DNA from: Rhodanobacteraceae bacterium
GTDB taxonomy: Bacteria > Pseudomonadota > Gammaproteobacteria > Xanthomonadales > SZUA-5
Direction: 5' to 3'
Length of the DNA: 64,000 nt
NCBI GenBank assembly: GCA_031409855.1
Contig: JANNYA010000066.1
Coordinates: 595 to 64,594, forward strand
The position numbers were made by a program, and so were the translations under genes. Below are positions 1,718-57,334 of this stretch, one piece after another. Positions within the stretch are counted from its first letter, which is position 1. Each line of letters begins with the position of its first letter. The notes beneath the pieces are model-generated. The model saw only the letters and a program-made list of their open reading frames with translations. It was not told where the DNA came from and made no database searches.

Positions 1718-2079
1718 CCAATCCAGTGCCCGCGCCTCCCGAAGTTCTAGCGCGGTGCGACGACCCGCCAACAATGTCTGCTAACAGCGGTTTTGCAGCA
1801 CCTCGTGCCTACGCTAACCGCCCGATTCGACAGTTTTCGTCAAATTTTCGGGCCTTTTGCCCGTTGTTCTAGCGTTTTGTCATGCGCTTATAAGCACTTT
1901 GTAATCGCTTTGGAATGCTCCGGTAGGCAGTGCGCGCCGAATATCGAGCCCGGCAACCAAGCAACCTATTGCCGTAATCAACCAAGTCGAATCAACTAAG
2001 CGTAGTCAACTAAGGAGGATCATTATGAAAAAGCGTATCACTCCGCCCACCCCCATCTACCCAAAAACGTCGCGGTTTG

Positions 2080-2970
2080 CTAGGCCAGCGGCCGCCAGTT
2101 GTGCGGTAATAGCTCGCTAATATCGCGATCTTTAGTTGTTGGCAACCGCGTTAGCACGTCGGTCAAATAGGCTTGCGAGTTGACACCACAGGCTTTTGCC
2201 GTTGCCAACAAACTCATGATCGCCGCTGCACGCTCGCCGGCTTTGGCGGAGCCTGCAAATAGCCAGTTCTTGCGGCCTAGTGCAATTGGACGGATCGCGT
2301 TTTCCACCGCGTTATTGTCAATCGGATAGCGCCCGTCCTCCAAAAAGCGTAGGAAACTCGCTTCCCGCCGCAGCAGATAATCAATCGCGTTACCCGTGCT
2401 TGAATTTGAACTCACCTGCGGCCTGATTTTCTTGAGCCAAACGAATAAGTTCTCGGCGTCTACTTGGGTTTGAGCTTGGCGGTACGCAGTGCGTTCTTCC
2501 TTGATCATTTCCTTCGCCACGCGTTCGTGCTCATACAGCGCCCCGATCCGTGTCAGCGCTTCGTATGCAATCGGGCTTTGATTGGCTTTGTGCAGCTCGA
2601 AAAACTTGCGCCTTGCATGCGCCCAACAAGCAATTTCGCGCATCGGGGTGTCGCGAAAAAGCGCTTTGTAACCAGCAAAATCATCGACCACGAGCGCGCC
2701 GGTGTAGCCTTCTAAAAACGCGGCCGCGTGCGTGCCGGATCGGCTGGTCTGAAAGTCAAACACCACCATCGGTGCAGCGCCTAACTCGGCGCTGCGATAG
2801 GCAAATAAATACGCACGCTTGGTGGTTTGCGAACGCTCTTTTGCGCCGGGATTCAACATCTGAATCGGCGTCTCATCCACGTGCAAAACCGCCTGTTCGT
2901 AGAGCTGTTTGCGCAGGTACGCGACCAGCGGCTTCAGCGCGACACCGACCTTGCCAATCCACTCTGCCAA
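2080..2970 (-). pseudogene. IS66-family transposase TnpC, N-terminally truncated
   Basis: The 296-aa ORF contains the IS66 DDE-region hallmarks VDETPIQML, CWAHARRKF and NNAVENAIRPIALGRKNWLF. Full-length TnpC is roughly 500 aa, and the N-terminal zinc-finger part is missing. Confidence 0.8.
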
Positions 2971-3190
2971 GCGGCTGCACCGCCACGTACCAAGCCCTAG
3001 GTTGCAACATCAGCGCAAACCCAACAGCACGTCCGCCAACCAGCGCGGCGCAACATCGCGCGGCAAACGCAACTGCGCACCACTAAACGAAAGCACTAAA
3101 TCACCCGGCACCACGCCGTCACCGTCTGACCGCTACGCGCATGCGCCGATAACCGCGCCTGCCACTGTACTTTTGCACCCTGCGACATCT
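2080..3190 (-). mobile_element. Degraded IS66-family element with internal deletions (orf1 remnant, a few codons of tnpB, C-terminal ~55% of tnpC)
   Basis: Reading the minus strand from 3188 gives MSQGAKVQWQARLSAHARSGQTVTAWCRVI-stop, then LSFSGAQLRLPRDVAPRWLADVLLGL in another frame. This matches the IS66 orf1 pattern. A few tnpB-like codons follow, then the text runs straight into the middle of TnpC. The element ends are not defined. Confidence 0.7.
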
Positions 3191-3237
3191 CAAATACCAT
3201 TGCGTTCAATAGAGTCCGTACGCTGGCAGATTAGGGC

Positions 3238-3630
3238 TTGGGTTGGTATGTGGGGTTGGGCGGAGGGATACGCTACACCAGCGTAAAGGTGCTCAATCAG
3301 CAGCTGCGCAAAAACCCAGAGCGCGCAAATCAGTCGTTAATGCCGTTGGTTGGCGCGCGATCTTTCAATTTGCCCGATATCTCGTTGGCGGATTACATTG
3401 AGCTTGTCGATTTTACTGGCCGCGAACTGCATCCCGGCAAACGCGGCAAGATTGAAGCGAGCGAGCCGAAGGCGCTGCGCAAATTGGGTTTGACGACGCG
3501 TGTCAAAGGCATTGGCTCGGGCTACTGGCGCGTGGTCGGGGAATTGGAATAGTTGATCGATAAGGCGAAGGAAATCAGTCAGCGCACGCTGTTTGGCATT
3601 GGATTTGCCCGGATTTTGAACAAAATTTAA
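3238..3630 (+). pseudogene. C-terminal remnant of a Y1 (IS200-like, COG1943/RAYT-type) transposase with an in-frame stop
   Basis: LADYIELVDFTGRELHPGKRGKI...LRKLGL...WRVVGELE matches the conserved C-terminal tail of this family. After the TAG at 3550-3552 the same frame continues with a plausible tail (LIDKAKEISQRTLFGIGFARIL). The N-terminal catalytic domain is absent. Confidence 0.5.
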
Positions 3631-3967
3631 GTCGACATTGGGTTATTTTTTATGCCGCGCTTGCGGCTGGGCGTGTTGGCTTTTGATTTGTTTTGGCTTG
3701 GATTTTCGGCGAATTTGATAGGGAAATAAGAGGATGCGAGCGGTTTTTAAGGCTGCTGGCATTTTTAAGTCTGAGACCTGGGTGTCCGGCGTTACTGCAA
3801 GATTTAAGTCGACATTGGGTCATTGTTTTTGCCGCGTTTGCGGCTGGCGGTGTTCGTTTTTGATTTGTTTTGGCTTGGATTTTCGCCGAATTTGATAGGG
3901 CGATAAGAGAATGCCGCCGGTATTAAGGCTGCTGGCATTTTTAAGTCTGAGGCCTGGGTGTCCGGCG
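3628..3967. repeat. Tandem direct repeat, 2 units of ~164 bp (3628-3791 and 3805-3967), period 176-177 bp
   Basis: By-eye alignment gives roughly 85-90% identity with one 1-nt indel. The 13-nt linker and the first ~12 nt of a third unit (3968-3990) resemble the unit junction and overlap the stop codon of the 3978-4820 gene. Confidence 0.9.
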
Positions 3968-3977
3968 CGATGACAAA

Positions 3978-4820
3978 TTAGACGACACAGCGGCCCACCT
4001 GTTGTAGGTTTTGGTCGAACATCATCCCGCCCTTGGTGCTCCGGTGAAACCAATTGCTCCTATTATTTATAATATCTTCCCTAAGCTCGTCGGTAATTCG
4101 CAGTTGGCTCGGTTCCATACAAGAAAAAACAGCCTCGTCAATAAAGCGTTTGGATATGATATCTACGTGTTCATTTTTGCGCACGCAAAGATAAAGTTGG
4201 CCTTTGCTATGCAAGGACTCCACTAAACTATCAAATGACATTATGTGAAAGTCATCTGCCTCGCGCGCCCTGATTAATCCTCTTTTTAGTTCGCTTCCTT
4301 CAAATTCTGAGCGACGACCATGAACAAGTACATATTTGATATAGCACTTGTTGCGCCTCATGATTTCGGGAACTCTTACTGACGCGATCGTGCTGTCAAT
4401 GAAGCCGATCAGATTTGCCTGGTTATCAAACCATGCTCGCCACCGAGCGATTTGATCCAGACCCGCGAGAAATTCAGGATGCAGATCAGTGGAATTATCT
4501 TTGAAGTAACGTGAACGTGGTTTTTCTATTTCGACGAAAACAAGATTCCAGTCTGCCGAGCTCTTTGATAAATAGAAGAAATCTGGGGCGTAGTCTTTTG
4601 CAAGCGAGATTTTTCTGAAAACCATATCGAAATGAATGCCGTGGTTCTGAATAAATTCTCTAGGAATGAGTGACGTATTTTCTTCAATGTAGTTTTGATA
4701 TGCCTGCTCAGGAAGGTCTTCTTCGAGCATTCGAATAAATTTGTTTTTGATGTTATGTAACTCGTGTGGGTCTAGTCGCACATTTATCCAATGTTGTTTA
4801 ACGCTTAATTCCGCCGACAT
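3978..4820 (-). CDS. DUF4263 / Shedu (SduA)-like PD-(D/E)xK nuclease-domain protein
   Basis: The family pattern is visible: EQAYQNYIEENTSLIP, APDFFYL(D80)...LVFVEIEK(E97-K100)P, VLVHGRRSEF and HIMSFDSLV. GGAGG lies 3 nt before the ATG. The sequence is AT-richer than its flanks. Confidence 0.6.
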   Translation of the reverse strand: MSAELSVKQHWINVRLDPHELHNIKNKFIRMLEEDLPEQAYQNYIEENTSLIPREFIQNHGIHFDMVFRKISLAKDYAPDFFYLSKSSADWNLVFVEIEKPRSRYFKDNSTDLHPEFLAGLDQIARWRAWFDNQANLIGFIDSTIASVRVPEIMRRNKCYIKYVLVHGRRSEFEGSELKRGLIRAREADDFHIMSFDSLVESLHSKGQLYLCVRKNEHVDIISKRFIDEAVFSCMEPSQLRITDELREDIINNRSNWFHRSTKGGMMFDQNLQQVGRCVV

Positions 4821-4853
4821 TCGCCTCCGAAAACCAATACAGAGGATTCTTAG

Positions 4854-5411
4854 CTATGCCTTACCGTCGGGAAATGCTTCAGCCGCACTCCGGATACGAT
4901 TCATAGATTTACGAATATCATGAGTAAATGCAGAAAACCAACTGGTCTGAACATTTTCTACCATGGCCCAAGGCTTGCCTTTATTATCTATTGGATATCT
5001 GAAGACTTGATCTAGCGGCCGAGCTTTCAGATTTTCCCTAATGGCCAATGCTCTTTCCGAATCATTTCCGCCTATAACTTGAGTCGTAAACGGGATGCTC
5101 CAAACATATTCCGGCTCTGGAAAACATTTGTGAAACTCGATGCTCAGTTCTTCAAGTTTGTGGGAAACAAATTTTGCGGCTGGATCACGCAAAACAATCA
5201 TGCCTTTAAGAAATTGCTCGATACTTAACCGCGCATTGAACATGCAAGCCGACGCGATAAAATCTGGAATACGCTCAGTTGATATATCTGCAGCCAGCAA
5301 CTCGGCGGCTTTCAAATAAGCGTTCGCTAAGCCGAGGAACGATTCTGTGGTGCTAATTATTTCATTCACCTGAAACCTCCTACCCTGCATAATTTTGAAT
5401 TCAGCCGACAT
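4854..5411 (-). CDS. hypothetical all-helical protein, HEPN-like; the likely true start is the GTG at 5369
   Basis: The core ANAYLKAAELL...FNARLSIEQFLKGMIVLRDPAAKFVSHKLEELS resembles non-canonical HEPN domains, but there is no clean Rx4-6H motif. AGGAGG (5376-5381) lies 6 nt upstream of the GTG at 5369. The gene sits 33 nt upstream of the DUF4263 gene. Confidence 0.5.
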   Translation of the reverse strand: MSAEFKIMQGRRFQVNEIISTTESFLGLANAYLKAAELLAADISTERIPDFIASACMFNARLSIEQFLKGMIVLRDPAAKFVSHKLEELSIEFHKCFPEPEYVWSIPFTTQVIGGNDSERALAIRENLKARPLDQVFRYPIDNKGKPWAMVENVQTSWFSAFTHDIRKSMNRIRSAAEAFPDGKA

Positions 5412-5483
5412 CCGGCTCGGGAACCGACGTTAGCGCGATACCGCCGAATGCCGCTTGGAATGTGTTGTAGGAGCGATCCACTG

Positions 5484-6410
5484 CTAAGCCAAAGCACCAC
5501 AGCAATGCCTAATCTTAACCCCGCTTCCGCAGGGACAAAGACTATTGCGTGATCTGTGGCTATGCGTGAGCTCGCGAATGGCGTCTTCGAGGACAAGCAA
5601 TTCTGAGCTCAAAATGACCAATCCTAGATTGTTGGGGATGGAGCCAACGGCCATCGCCTTTGTATCGGTAGGGACTTCGACGATTACGACCTCGCCGGTT
5701 GTGGTGTGTTGGGGTCCGGCGTAGAGAGTGCCTAGGAGTGCAATACGGCTTCCGATGCATACGGTGCCCGATGGTTCTATGAAGCTCCCGATGTTTGCAA
5801 GAAATACCGGCGAGCCCGAAGAGCCAGGAAAACACGCGGCGTCGATAAGAAACTCAGGCTTGCCATTCAAGGGCAAGCGTGGATGCGTGGCTGTAATGCC
5901 CCGTCGGATAATCGGAAGGTTGTGGTTCTGATCCCACATACCGTTTGGATATCCTATCATCACAATTTCTTCCATGATCGACAGCGAATTTAGAAGCGAC
6001 TGGTTGGGAACTAATGTCCGGTCGAGAGCAACAAAGTGATAGGCAGTTCCTTTTTTGCTCGCGGCGTTTAGGACTGCGCCGATTGGCAGTGCAATTAGAT
6101 CCACCGAATCATTTGGATGAGCGATGCATAGCGCATCAAGGCCGTGAACTGTGACCGCCTCGTGTCTTCCAATGTCTGGGCCACCGCCGTCCGCTCGAAG
6201 TGTCAAGTTAAATACCGCTCGCACCGCGTTCCTAAGCACGTGCTTATTAGTCACGATGCACGGCGCGCTACTACCGTCTTCTGTCTCGCAGAAGCGGTAA
6301 ACATATCCGGTCCCGGAGGAGGCCGCGCCGTTAGCATCGTACGCAAGGATTCGGACCGTGCTGTGCACGAGCATTGAGATCGGATCAACGTACGAAGCCA
6401 TCGAGATCAC
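5484..6410 (-). CDS. cytoplasmic trypsin-like (S1/Trypsin_2) serine protease with a C-terminal SEC-C zinc-binding motif
   Basis: The catalytic contexts are TNKHV (His), SVDLIALPI (Asp) and GSSGSPVF (Ser). The C-terminal CPCGSGVKIRHCCG matches the SecA C-terminal metal-binding motif. There is no signal peptide. Confidence 0.8.
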   Translation of the reverse strand: MISMASYVDPISMLVHSTVRILAYDANGAASSGTGYVYRFCETEDGSSAPCIVTNKHVLRNAVRAVFNLTLRADGGGPDIGRHEAVTVHGLDALCIAHPNDSVDLIALPIGAVLNAASKKGTAYHFVALDRTLVPNQSLLNSLSIMEEIVMIGYPNGMWDQNHNLPIIRRGITATHPRLPLNGKPEFLIDAACFPGSSGSPVFLANIGSFIEPSGTVCIGSRIALLGTLYAGPQHTTTGEVVIVEVPTDTKAMAVGSIPNNLGLVILSSELLVLEDAIRELTHSHRSRNSLCPCGSGVKIRHCCGALA

Positions 6411-6536
6411 TGTAAATACAAATAAACGGGCATGAGTAGCATGCTGTCTTCAATCTCCCTGCAAATCAAGCCTTACCTAATGCCAATCGCCGATAAATCT
6501 GAGGTTGCGACTTGGCCTGTGCCTTCGCTTCGCCCC

Positions 6537-8477
6537 TCACCACTCCCACAACAACTCCGCCCAAACCAAGCGCTCACTAAAAACCGTATCCACGCGGCGC
6601 CCGGGAGGCACGCGGGTGATATAGCGCAGCTCCGCGTCCGTGGCGTTTTGCACGGAAACGCGTAATGACAGCGGGGTGGACAGCCGATGTGTCAGGGCAA
6701 GATCCAGGCGGTTGTAGCCGGCGACTTGATCGGCTTCGACCTGCCGGGTACCGACATGCAGCAGATGCGCGCCAAATTGCCAGCGTTCGTGTGCACGCCA
6801 GAGTGCGCTTAAGCTGCTGTTGTTTTTTGCCGCGCCAAAGCTTTCGCCGCGCCGTTGCCCCATTTGTATTCTAGGATCGGCGGTATCGGCAAAGCTGAAA
6901 TTAGCGCGAACTTGCAGGGTTTCGGATAGCTCGTGTTGATATTCCAGCTCAACGCCTTTGCTCTTTTGCCCAGGTGCATTTTGATGTCCGGGCGGGCTTC
7001 CGGGCGGCCTGCGAAAAATGGCGTCGGGCACGCTGGCGTTAAAGACCGCGGCGCGCAATTTACCGGCGCCAAAGTCATAGATATAGGCTAGCTCGCTGGT
7101 TTGAATGGTTTCAAAATCCAAATTGCCGTTGGCAATGCCGGTGCCGGCGCTGTAGAGCTCAATAAACGTCGGGGTACGAAAGCCGCGCGCAGTTTGCGCT
7201 TTGAAGGTATGCCTGTCGTTGATGCGCCACACCACCGCTGCGCGTGGCGTCACTTTGGAATCCACGCCTTGCAGCTCGTCCAGGCGCACACCCAAAGTCG
7301 CGCTAAGCCGTGGGTTGAAGTCGATTTGATCTTGCAACATCACCGAGCTTAAGCTGCGCGAGATGTCTTCAACACGGACATTTGGGTTCGCGGGTTGCCC
7401 CGGCTGGGGCATGGCTGCGGGCGAGTCGGCAAAATCGATGGATTGCTGGATACGTGAGACTTCAAACAGCCACAGCTGCGGGCCAAAGCGTTTTTCGCCG
7501 TTGAAGGAATAGCGCCATTCGTGCCCGTCGTAGCGCGAATTGCCGAATTGCGAATCGACATTTTGCCGGCCCAGGCTAAACCCCAGCTGCGCAGAATTAT
7601 CGAGCTGCCAAGATTTTTGTAACTGCAGGTTGCTCAATATTTCATGCCGGTCACGTGGGCGAGGCGGCGGTGGCGGCGGTGGCGCTTGCCCGGGTGGTGG
7701 CGGCGGTGGCCGCGGTGCGGCTTCGCGCCCGATATCGTGATTAAAGAAATTACCTTGCAGCACAAAACCGGCGAAAGACCAACGGGCATTAACAAAGCGG
7801 CGCTGTTCTTCATCACTGGGCAAGGCAGAATCTTCAGCGATATCGCCACGAAAATCCGAGGCGTTGAAATCGAGTTGCCCGGCCTGGCCCTGTACGCTGT
7901 GATTCACCGCCAGCTGGCGATTTTGCTCAGATCCAGCGGCCAAACTTAGCTGCGAACGGTCACTGCGGGTGATGATATTGACCAGGCCGGTAAAGGCGAA
8001 ATCGCCATAAAGATTGGACCCGGGGCCACGAATCACTTCAATGCGATCCACCTGGGCGATCGGCATGAGCAAAACGGCGCTATTGCTTGCGCTGGTTTCT
8101 GCCGCCATGTCCAGGCCATCGACCATGACTTTGACATTGCCGGAATTAAAGAAGAAATCGAACCCGCGTACCCGCAGCGTGGCATTGCCATCTAAGTCAA
8201 CATTGGCCTCGATGCCTGGCACCAAGGTAAGCGCGTCTAATACCGTGCGTTTGCCGAGCAATGCCAACTCATCGCCTTGCAGCACGCTGACTAAACCTGG
8301 CACAAAGTCGGCATTTTGTTTACTGCGCGACGCGATTTCGGTTTCCTCGGAAAGTGCCTCTAAGAGCTCGCTTTCCTCATCTTGGGCATGTGCAAAATTC
8401 GCACTGAAACTCAGCGCGCACAGCGCCGCACACAGCGCTGGCTTAAGCCGTATACGCTTTAATTTGTAGCTGCTCAT
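6537..8477 (-). CDS. TonB-dependent receptor with an internal polyproline insert
   Basis: The signal peptide is MSSYKLKRIRLKPALCAALCALSFSANFAHA. The plug motifs are IEVIRGPGSNLYG and GLVNIIT, and the barrel ends in an aromatic residue (...LLWEW). The ATG at 8477 overlaps the stop of the upstream gene (ATGA). The longer ORF starting at 8546 is rejected. Confidence 0.85.
   Translation of the reverse strand: MSSYKLKRIRLKPALCAALCALSFSANFAHAQDEESELLEALSEETEIASRSKQNADFVPGLVSVLQGDELALLGKRTVLDALTLVPGIEANVDLDGNATLRVRGFDFFFNSGNVKVMVDGLDMAAETSASNSAVLLMPIAQVDRIEVIRGPGSNLYGDFAFTGLVNIITRSDRSQLSLAAGSEQNRQLAVNHSVQGQAGQLDFNASDFRGDIAEDSALPSDEEQRRFVNARWSFAGFVLQGNFFNHDIGREAAPRPPPPPPGQAPPPPPPPRPRDRHEILSNLQLQKSWQLDNSAQLGFSLGRQNVDSQFGNSRYDGHEWRYSFNGEKRFGPQLWLFEVSRIQQSIDFADSPAAMPQPGQPANPNVRVEDISRSLSSVMLQDQIDFNPRLSATLGVRLDELQGVDSKVTPRAAVVWRINDRHTFKAQTARGFRTPTFIELYSAGTGIANGNLDFETIQTSELAYIYDFGAGKLRAAVFNASVPDAIFRRPPGSPPGHQNAPGQKSKGVELEYQHELSETLQVRANFSFADTADPRIQMGQRRGESFGAAKNNSSLSALWRAHERWQFGAHLLHVGTRQVEADQVAGYNRLDLALTHRLSTPLSLRVSVQNATDAELRYITRVPPGRRVDTVFSERLVWAELLWEW
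7657..7720 (-). repeat. GGCGGCGGTGG-type reiterated tract encoding PRPPPPPPGQAPPPPPPPRPR inside the receptor
   Basis: The plus strand reads ggcgaggcggcggtggcggcggtggcgcttgcccgggtggtggcggcggtggccgcggtgcgg. The minus-frame translation is a double polyproline run. Confidence 0.85.
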
Positions 8478-57258: not shown

Positions 57259-57334
57259 GGGCCGCTAGCTCAGTCGGTAGAGCAGCGGACTTTTAATCCG
57301 TTGGTCCCGAGTTCGAATCTCGGGCGGCCCACCA
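57259..57334 (+). tRNA. tRNA-Lys (anticodon UUU)
   Basis: The 76-nt cloverleaf is GGGCCGCTAGCTCAGTCGGTAGAGCAGCGGACTTTTAATCCGTTGGTCCCGAGTTCGAATCTCGGGCGGCCCACCA. It is close to E. coli tRNA-Lys and has an encoded CCA. Confidence 0.95.

Follow-up and report, generated by a model that had tools for sequence, protein, structure and literature searches.

Here we describe a locus of three adjacent genes in a 64,000-nucleotide (nt) stretch of DNA, hereafter the window, from a Rhodanobacteraceae bacterium (GenBank assembly GCA_031409855.1, contig JANNYA010000066.1, positions 595 to 64,594 of the forward strand). In the order in which they would be read, the genes code for a trypsin-like protease with a SEC-C tail (gene 1), a small helical protein (gene 2) and a Shedu-type nuclease (gene 3). 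An earlier note, made from the sequence alone, had proposed that they constitute one anti-phage cassette, in which sensing is outsourced to the protease. The analysis presented below points to a different explanation, which we consider very probable: rather than forming one system, three single-gene defence modules, each with a distribution of its own, lie side by side in a small islet acquired by horizontal transfer.

All three open reading frames (ORFs) are on the minus strand with short gaps between them (Table 1), just as the earlier note had read them. Depending on the start chosen, 72-114 nt separate gene 1 from gene 2, and 33-72 nt separate gene 2 from gene 3. The content of guanine and cytosine (GC) is 0.40-0.47 over positions 3750-5500, as compared to 0.55-0.59 in the flanks. 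This low-GC islet is made up of genes 2 and 3 only, and gene 1 lies outside the AT-rich patch.

Table 1. Coordinates and base composition of the genes and features at the locus, together with two plasmid copies of a gene 3 homolog (GC3, GC at third codon positions; aa, amino acids).
Feature	Positions	Strand	GC	GC3	Remarks
Gene 1	5484-6410	minus	0.537 (= window mean)	0.576	308-aa ORF
Gene 2	4854-5411 (ORF from ATG 5411); 4854-5369 from GTG 5369	minus	0.438	0.407	171 aa from GTG 5369
Gene 3	3978-4820; likely true start GTG 4781	minus	0.429	0.455	280-aa ORF; 267 aa from GTG 4781
Host genes			0.556-0.576	0.62-0.65	
IS66-family element, internally deleted	2032-3274	minus			truncated transposase ORF 2080-2970 between terminal inverted repeats
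Two tandem copies of a ~177-nt repeat	3606-3967	none			directly downstream of gene 3 stop codon
Terminator-like hairpin	6430-6444	minus			between TonB-receptor gene and gene 1 (consensus scan)
WP_223201583.1 copy, L183	4751-5551 of pHCM1 locus (NC_003384.1, S. Typhi CT18)				large conjugative plasmid
WP_223201583.1 copy, L185	2751-3551 of pO111_1 locus (NC_013365.1, E. coli O111:H- 11128)				large conjugative plasmid

Identity of the three gene products

The product of gene 1 matched Pfam Trypsin_2 (PF13365; 39.6 bits against a cutoff of 27.6, E-value 1.1e-9) as well as Pfam SEC-C (25.5 bits, cutoff 20.4; 1.2e-5), and the motifs TNKHV, SVDLIALPI, GSSGSPVF and CPCGSGVKIRHCCG were all found in its sequence. 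The triad H57, D104 and S198 was invariant in an alignment of 28 homologs. The trypsin-fold triad contexts and the zinc knuckle pointed out by the earlier note were thus confirmed. No signal peptide was apparent on reading the sequence, no predictor being used. Gene 1 is predicted to code for an S1/trypsin-like serine protease that acts in the cytoplasm and bears a SEC-C zinc knuckle at its C-terminus; the corresponding NCBI product begins at ATG 6401 and has 305 aa. Such a protein already carries a name, since gene 1 matched the PADLOC single-gene candidate PDC-S45 (PDLC05022) at 5.9e-107 with 355 bits, over profile positions 11-288 of 293. The PDC set comprises 145 untested single- and multi-gene candidates obtained from guilt-by-embedding (Payne et al., bioRxiv 10.1101/2024.01.29.577857). 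NCBIfam returned nothing but SEC-C-motif noise for the three window proteins, and we found no paper in which a SEC-C-tailed trypsin-like protease was tested in anti-phage defence. Homologs of gene 1 are numerous (5,106 matches) and often lie near other defence genes, such as the Gabija-like pair at locus L169 (loci outside the window are given by our L numbers). The SEC-C tail is variable in this family, many homologs of 283-287 aa being devoid of it.

The assignment of gene 3 to the DUF4263 (Shedu-type) nucleases, also made by the earlier note, was borne out by profile searches. The protein matched Pfam SduA_C/DUF4263 (PF14082) with 78.4 bits (cutoff 27; 8.6e-22) over residues 37-200, and PADLOC SduA (PDLC00378) at 2.7e-88. 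Residues D80, E97, E99 and K100 were invariant among 30 clade members, the majority of which begin at the equivalent of GTG 4781. With DUF4263 starting at residue 37 of the 280-aa ORF, or at about residue 24 of the 267-aa form, gene 3 has the fewer than 40 aa ahead of this domain that define Type 2 Shedu (Gu et al., bioRxiv 10.1101/2023.08.10.552793). The C-terminus carries a clade-specific extension of ~80 aa, and the clade comprises 197 homolog matches. A PDB sequence search with the profile of the clade gave nothing significant, and hence no solved Shedu active site on which to place the conserved residues. From its domain content, gene 3 is predicted to be a Type 2 (DUF4263-only) Shedu nuclease of the PD-(D/E)xK kind.

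The short N-terminus of gene 3 had been taken as a sign of outsourced sensing. That argument is undercut by the catalogue of Gu et al., in which 2,286 of the 7,687 Shedu homologs are domain-only proteins of Type 2; constitutive activity was suggested for them by the authors, and the Salmonella example cited there protects unaided. Gu et al. also reported a strong tie of Shedu to transposable elements, with which the plasmid copies of the gene 3 clade found here, flanked by insertion sequences (IS), agree. A 266-aa Shedu of this clade, WP_223201583.1, is 49% identical to gene 3 and lies alone between IS1 and ISNCY transposases, beside catA1, on pHCM1 and pO111_1 (Table 1). It matched 64 plasmid records, the carriers being conjugative resistance plasmids from Salmonella, E. 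coli, Klebsiella and other bacteria. BAI39103.1, a monocistronic Shedu of the E. coli strain that carries pO111_1, is described as 'streamlined, minimal' and protected E. coli against T4, P251 and T7 (bioRxiv 10.1101/2025.09.13.674623, hereafter the KELShedu preprint). BAI39103.1 is probably the pO111_1 gene.

Gene 2 could be placed with less firmness. Its likeliest start had been read as GTG 5369 behind AGGAGG-N6, and this ribosome-binding site is present in the sequence and the start agrees with the 171-aa NCBI product P0001. The window protein had no match in Pfam, PADLOC or NCBIfam, and its close homologs number 15. An exhaustive profile search extended the family to 347 clusters at 50% identity, nearly all of them stand-alone proteins of 170-210 aa. 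Among 82 members, E51, H70 and Y125 were invariant and Y18, K55, R124, P126 and W134 nearly so. Pfam HEPN (PF05168) was matched by 15 of these 82 members (best 3.3e-6); the close homolog P0013 reached 16.4 bits (cutoff 22) in a sub-threshold match that spans helix 2 and the conserved histidine. The AlphaFold (AF2) model was an all-helical bundle, with a predicted local distance difference test score (pLDDT) of 76.6 when 15 sequences were supplied and 94.4 with 82. In Foldseek, the top PDB matches of the first model were HEPN proteins (4nqf, 1wol, HepT toxins), though weak (E ~0.3), and with the better model these HEPN matches weakened to a probability of 0.4-0.47.

A conserved Rx4-6H motif was not found in the family alignments, none of the upstream neighbours of gene 2 homologs matched a nucleotidyltransferase, and PDB sequence searches with gene 2 profiles gave nothing significant. 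Because of the partial PF05168 matches, the weak Foldseek matches, and the lack of both Rx4-6H and a nucleotidyltransferase partner, we label gene 2 as an unnamed, divergent HEPN-like family, the HEPN-like call being moderately supported. Of the earlier description of gene 2 as all-helical with a HEPN-like core, the helical part agrees well with the AlphaFold model and the HEPN-like part stands with this reservation. The family had no match in viral contigs and phage genomes, and there is hence no sign that it is a phage gene; a fold search of BFVD gave weak matches only.

Homologs of gene 2 are often found in integron-type arrays, in which small same-strand ORFs are separated by attC-like sites (L008, L002, L004). 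At L008 (1356-3790), a canonical attC (GCCTAAC...GTTAGAC) lies at the stop codon of the gene 2 homolog and four more attC-like sites split the downstream ORFs, while the 46-nt gap to the upstream 205-aa gene holds no attC, which suggests a two-gene cassette there. Integron-like arrays with genes of this family were also seen at L002 (528-1099, 3728-3830) and L004 (2665-2770). A distant member, with 24% identity (broad profile 2.6e-55), is present at L184 on a plasmid of Ca. Tenderia electrophaga (CP013100.1, 303-6588), in a run of small ORFs that share its strand and lie downstream of an integrase of divergent orientation; the gene after it codes for a 323-aa protein that matches Abi_alpha weakly (E=0.004). 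According to Darracq et al. (bioRxiv 10.1101/2024.07.02.601686), integron cassettes serve as a reservoir of defence genes in streamlined form. At L170, no tRNA was detected by ARAGORN beside the gene 2 homolog.

Linkage of the three families and boundaries of the islet

Linkage of the three families in other genomes had been set beforehand as the test of the proposed cassette. We assembled 80 genome loci around homologs of gene 1 and 77 metagenome loci around homologs of the gene 3 clade, and all ORFs were searched with profiles of the three families. Downstream sequence of at least 700 nt was available at 71 of the 80 gene 1 loci and of at least 4 kb at 58; the gene 3-clade loci offered at least 700 nt upstream in 48 of 77 cases and at least 4 kb in 28. 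Not one of the 80 gene 1 loci had a gene 2 or gene 3-clade protein, and both gene 1 and gene 2 were missing from all 77 loci of the gene 3 clade. A broad gene 2 profile, with a reach of 20-30% identity, likewise detected no gene 2-family gene at the gene 1 or gene 3 loci, save for a marginal DUF3644 match at L098. Across about 170 related loci, the trio was never found together, and the other gene 2 contexts showed neither the trio nor two of its families as direct neighbours. The claim of a three-gene cassette with sensing outsourced to the protease did not survive this test.

No other conserved partner emerged in its place. When the neighbours were clustered, the largest cluster around gene 1 spanned 4 of the 80 loci, and the largest around the gene 3 clade, in 5 of the 77 loci, was an rve transposase; thus, gene 1 and gene 3 behave as single-gene units. 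The idea that gene 2 homologs have a common type of partner ahead of them was also considered and rejected, as the upstream genes are unlike one another and unlike gene 1; several of them open with signal-peptide or transmembrane-like segments. Downstream of the other readable gene 2 contexts lies DUF4760, DUF6500, or a 159-aa or 121-aa gene.

The closest homologs, which offer the fairest test of a young cassette, all had different neighbours. Downstream of a gene 1 homolog of 80% identity come a HicA-family gene and a small ORF, and one of 70% (L169) is followed by the Gabija-like pair of AAA_15/TOPRIM and UvrD genes. The closest homolog of gene 3, at 85% (L168, 202-2098), is preceded by a TIR protein encoded 73 nt upstream on the same strand, and another, at 76%, by an ABC ATPase. 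Among homologs of gene 2, one of 59% is preceded by small ORFs of unknown function and one of 58% by a Macro-domain gene. The TIR protein of L168 (339 aa; TIR_2 29 bits, cutoff 28) could be another possible neighbour of Shedu or an adjacent defence gene.

The families of genes 2 and 3 co-occurred at only one other locus, L001 (Logan SRR12283635 contig 141, 1838-12507), where a gene 2 homolog of 49% identity and a gene 3-clade Shedu of 55% lie 3.4 kb apart with three genes between them and no protease. The same-strand defence island at L001 starts with Lamassu (Cap4-nuclease LmuA and a split LmuB) and a 343-aa DUF6236-like gene, after which come the gene 2 homolog, a zinc-ribbon protein, two unknown genes, the gene 3-clade Shedu, a 267-aa gene and a PLD/NgoFVII nuclease. 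Four gene 2 contexts had at least 4 kb of downstream sequence (the window, L001, L008 and L184), and in two of the four a gene 3-clade Shedu lay within 4 kb. At L098 (6001-7966), a gene 3-clade Shedu is directly followed by a 365-aa DUF3644 (HEPN) protein, which the broad gene 2 profile reached at E=0.0018; DUF3644 is the domain of the validated defence gene HEC-08. As L098 pairs Shedu with this unrelated DUF3644 protein, Shedu may come to adjoin HEPN genes by ordinary mixing within defence islands.

On the gene 3 side, the islet is flanked by the remnant of an IS66-family element. Its inverted repeats of 30 nt (2032-2061 and 3245-3274) are 87% complementary, and the transposase matched Pfam DDE_Tnp_IS66 at 6.9e-80, the match starting at profile position 42. 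The element is ~1.2 kb long here, and a full IS66 is roughly 2.5 kb. The two ~177-nt repeat copies between this remnant and gene 3 (families D1 and D2) are 83-92% identical, or 89% by self-BLAST, which detected no further copies in the window; they matched no Rfam family and are possibly the edge of the acquired segment or a small repeat element. The other flank, on the side of gene 1, is of housekeeping character, with a TonB-dependent receptor, a GGDEF response regulator and a hybrid histidine kinase, and the terminator-like hairpin between the TonB-receptor gene and gene 1 marks the predicted upstream transcriptional boundary of the islet. The earlier picture of an AT-rich islet bounded by transposase wreckage therefore holds for the composition of genes 2 and 3 and for one border, but not for gene 1, with its GC of 0.537, nor for the border formed by the TonB-dependent receptor gene.

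A simple consensus scan found no minus-strand terminator-like site between genes 1, 2 and 3. A heuristic scan for R''/R' boxes with a stem gave 0 attC candidates in window positions 3001-7000, the same scan being positive at L008, L002 and L004, and no integrase is present in the islet. A vestigial attC in the gap between genes 2 and 3 was considered and rejected, its R'' and R' boxes not being complementary. One tRNA gene (57259-57331) is the sole Rfam family at gathering threshold across the 64-kb window.

Weighing of the explanations

The absence of linkage at the 80 and 77 loci, the lack of a recurrent neighbour and the differing neighbours of the closest homologs together argue that the three genes are independent modules. 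The families are also very unequal in size, gene 1 having 5,106 matches, the gene 3 clade 197 and gene 2 just 15, which points in the same direction, and so does the GC3 of gene 1, which is unlike that of genes 2 and 3. In addition, PDC-S45 is a single-gene label, Type 2 Shedu and BAI39103.1 are reported as working alone, and the copies on pHCM1 and pO111_1 are solitary. In an islet of such modules, gene 3 would probably act alone, by analogy with relatives that were tested, as a homotetramer cleaving incoming phage DNA. Gene 1 would be a stand-alone defence candidate, which, like the Lit protease, would presumably cleave a host or phage target once triggered. Members of its family occur in integron cassettes as well as in defence islands, and gene 2 is therefore most likely another autonomous accessory gene, of a defence or toxin-like kind. 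With no terminator-like site between the three genes, read-through may yield a single transcript of them all, which would be a result of adjacency and not of shared function.

The alternatives differ in which of the genes they join. The first joins all three into a system: infection would be sensed by the SEC-C protease together with the HEPN-like protein, and these would license the sensor-less Shedu, proteolytic activation being one possible route. Such a system would suit the common strand, the short gaps with no internal terminator-like site and the lack of an N-terminal sensor domain in gene 3, and it has in the two-gene KELShedu a precedent for outsourced function. We nevertheless hold it to be very improbable, as the trio or any pair of the families occurs at none of the 80 gene 1 loci and none of the 77 gene 3 loci, the nearest homologs of all three have other neighbours and the composition of gene 1 is unlike that of genes 2 and 3. 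Moreover, sensor-less Type 2 Shedu are common, one of them working alone (Gu et al.), and the partner features of KELShedu, namely a 110-aa WYL-like protein, a 3-bp gap and a docking N-terminal domain, are all missing here. Genes 2 and 3 could also have arrived together, as a two-gene module of HEPN-like accessory and Type 2 Shedu to which gene 1 is unrelated. The low GC common to both (0.44 and 0.43; GC3 0.41 and 0.46) and unlike that of gene 1, the gap of 33-72 nt, the recurrence of both rare families at L001 (49% and 55% identity) and the presence of Shedu within 4 kb in two of the four usable gene 2 contexts speak for this. Such a module is still unlikely: even the broad profile revealed no gene 2-family gene at the 48 gene 3-clade loci whose upstream sequence was usable, three other genes intervene at L001, and the other gene 2 contexts have DUF4760, DUF6500 or the 159-aa or 121-aa gene downstream instead. 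The Shedu beside an unrelated HEPN protein at L098 again indicates ordinary defence-island mixing. Finally, we see hardly any likelihood that genes 1 and 2 are a protease/HEPN pair resembling a toxin-antitoxin system, with Shedu an unrelated neighbour. The two genes are adjacent on the same strand with a gap of 72-114 nt, and many HEPN proteins are toxins that depend on a partner, but no gene 2-family gene was found at the 71 gene 1 loci for which downstream sequence was available, the genes ahead of gene 2 homologs are unrelated ones (Macro-domain, membrane or secreted proteins, and others), the GC3 of the two genes differs (0.58 vs 0.41) and gene 2 is devoid of Rx4-6H.

Several points weigh against an islet of three independent modules. 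The common strand, the gaps of 33-114 nt and the absence of an internal terminator in the simple scan may reflect co-transcription and a lineage-specific coupling. Genes 2 and 3 share a low GC, and their families co-occur again at L001, 3.4 kb apart. The word defence, as applied to genes 1 and 2, is inferred from context, and the shortness of many metagenomic contigs lowers the power of some of the context checks. A functional juxtaposition confined to this lineage, whereby gene 2, alone or with the gene 1 protease, modulates or licenses the sensor-less Type 2 Shedu, appears very improbable to us; under such a newly assembled, lineage-specific multi-gene Shedu, the same partnership of genes 2 and 3 would have left its trace in the co-occurrence at L001.

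With three independent modules as the favoured explanation, the locus is to be catalogued as Type 2 Shedu, PDC-S45 and an orphan HEPN-like gene, thereby averting the false lead of a protease-coupled nuclease system. The locus adds one member each to two known kinds, Type 2 Shedu and PDC-S45, together with an uncharacterised HEPN-like family. That family, being compact, with 347 clusters, a confident predicted structure and recurrence in integrons and defence islands, can reasonably be regarded as a candidate new family of single-gene defence or toxin proteins. Gene 1 is a clean and intact representative of the candidate PDC-S45 with a SEC-C tail.

Comparison with known systems

The gene 2 family resembles HEPN (PF05168) proteins and those of the MNT-HEPN (HepT/MntA, type VII) toxin-antitoxin modules in its predicted all-alpha bundle with the signature ELFLKG...HxLxxL...RYP. 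It differs from them in that the window protein has neither a Pfam match nor Rx4-6H nor an adjacent nucleotidyltransferase, is ~40 aa longer with a conserved RPLDQVFRYP insertion, and gives weak structural matches (E >0.1). Like the cassette-borne defence genes of integrons (Darracq et al.), homologs of gene 2 are found in attC-separated arrays, and the L184 member lies beside a plasmid integrase; unlike such cassettes, the islet of the window is without an attC-like site or integrase, and its genes lie between the TonB-receptor gene and the IS66 remnant.

The one published multi-gene Shedu is KELShedu, in which KELA, a 110-aa WYL-like binder of double-stranded DNA, is encoded at a 3-bp gap and is docked by the N-terminal beta-sheet domain of KELB (KELShedu preprint). 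The present locus is similar to it in having a smaller gene ahead of the DUF4263 nuclease gene, on the same strand. In contrast, gene 2 codes for a 171-aa HEPN-like protein, the gap is 33-72 nt, gene 3 is devoid of a docking N-terminal domain, and the pairing is not conserved.

Gene 1 is like PDC-S45 in its near end-to-end match, its Trypsin_2 core with intact triad, its single-gene behaviour and its frequent nearness to defence genes; PDC-S45 is a predicted-candidate label, not a demonstrated function, and the SEC-C tail is variable in the family of gene 1. As to gene 3, the Type 2 Shedu of Gu et al. are called 'Type I minimal' Shedu, with BAI39103.1 as an example, in the KELShedu preprint. 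The clade-specific C-terminal extension of ~80 aa and the lack of a sequence match to solved Shedu structures set gene 3 apart from other Type 2 Shedu, as does its position downstream of two other genes. With Type 2 Shedu it shares an SduA_C/DUF4263 domain beginning ~24-37 residues into the protein, the invariant D/E/E/K residues, a gene neighbourhood free of any conserved partner, and the association with insertion sequences.

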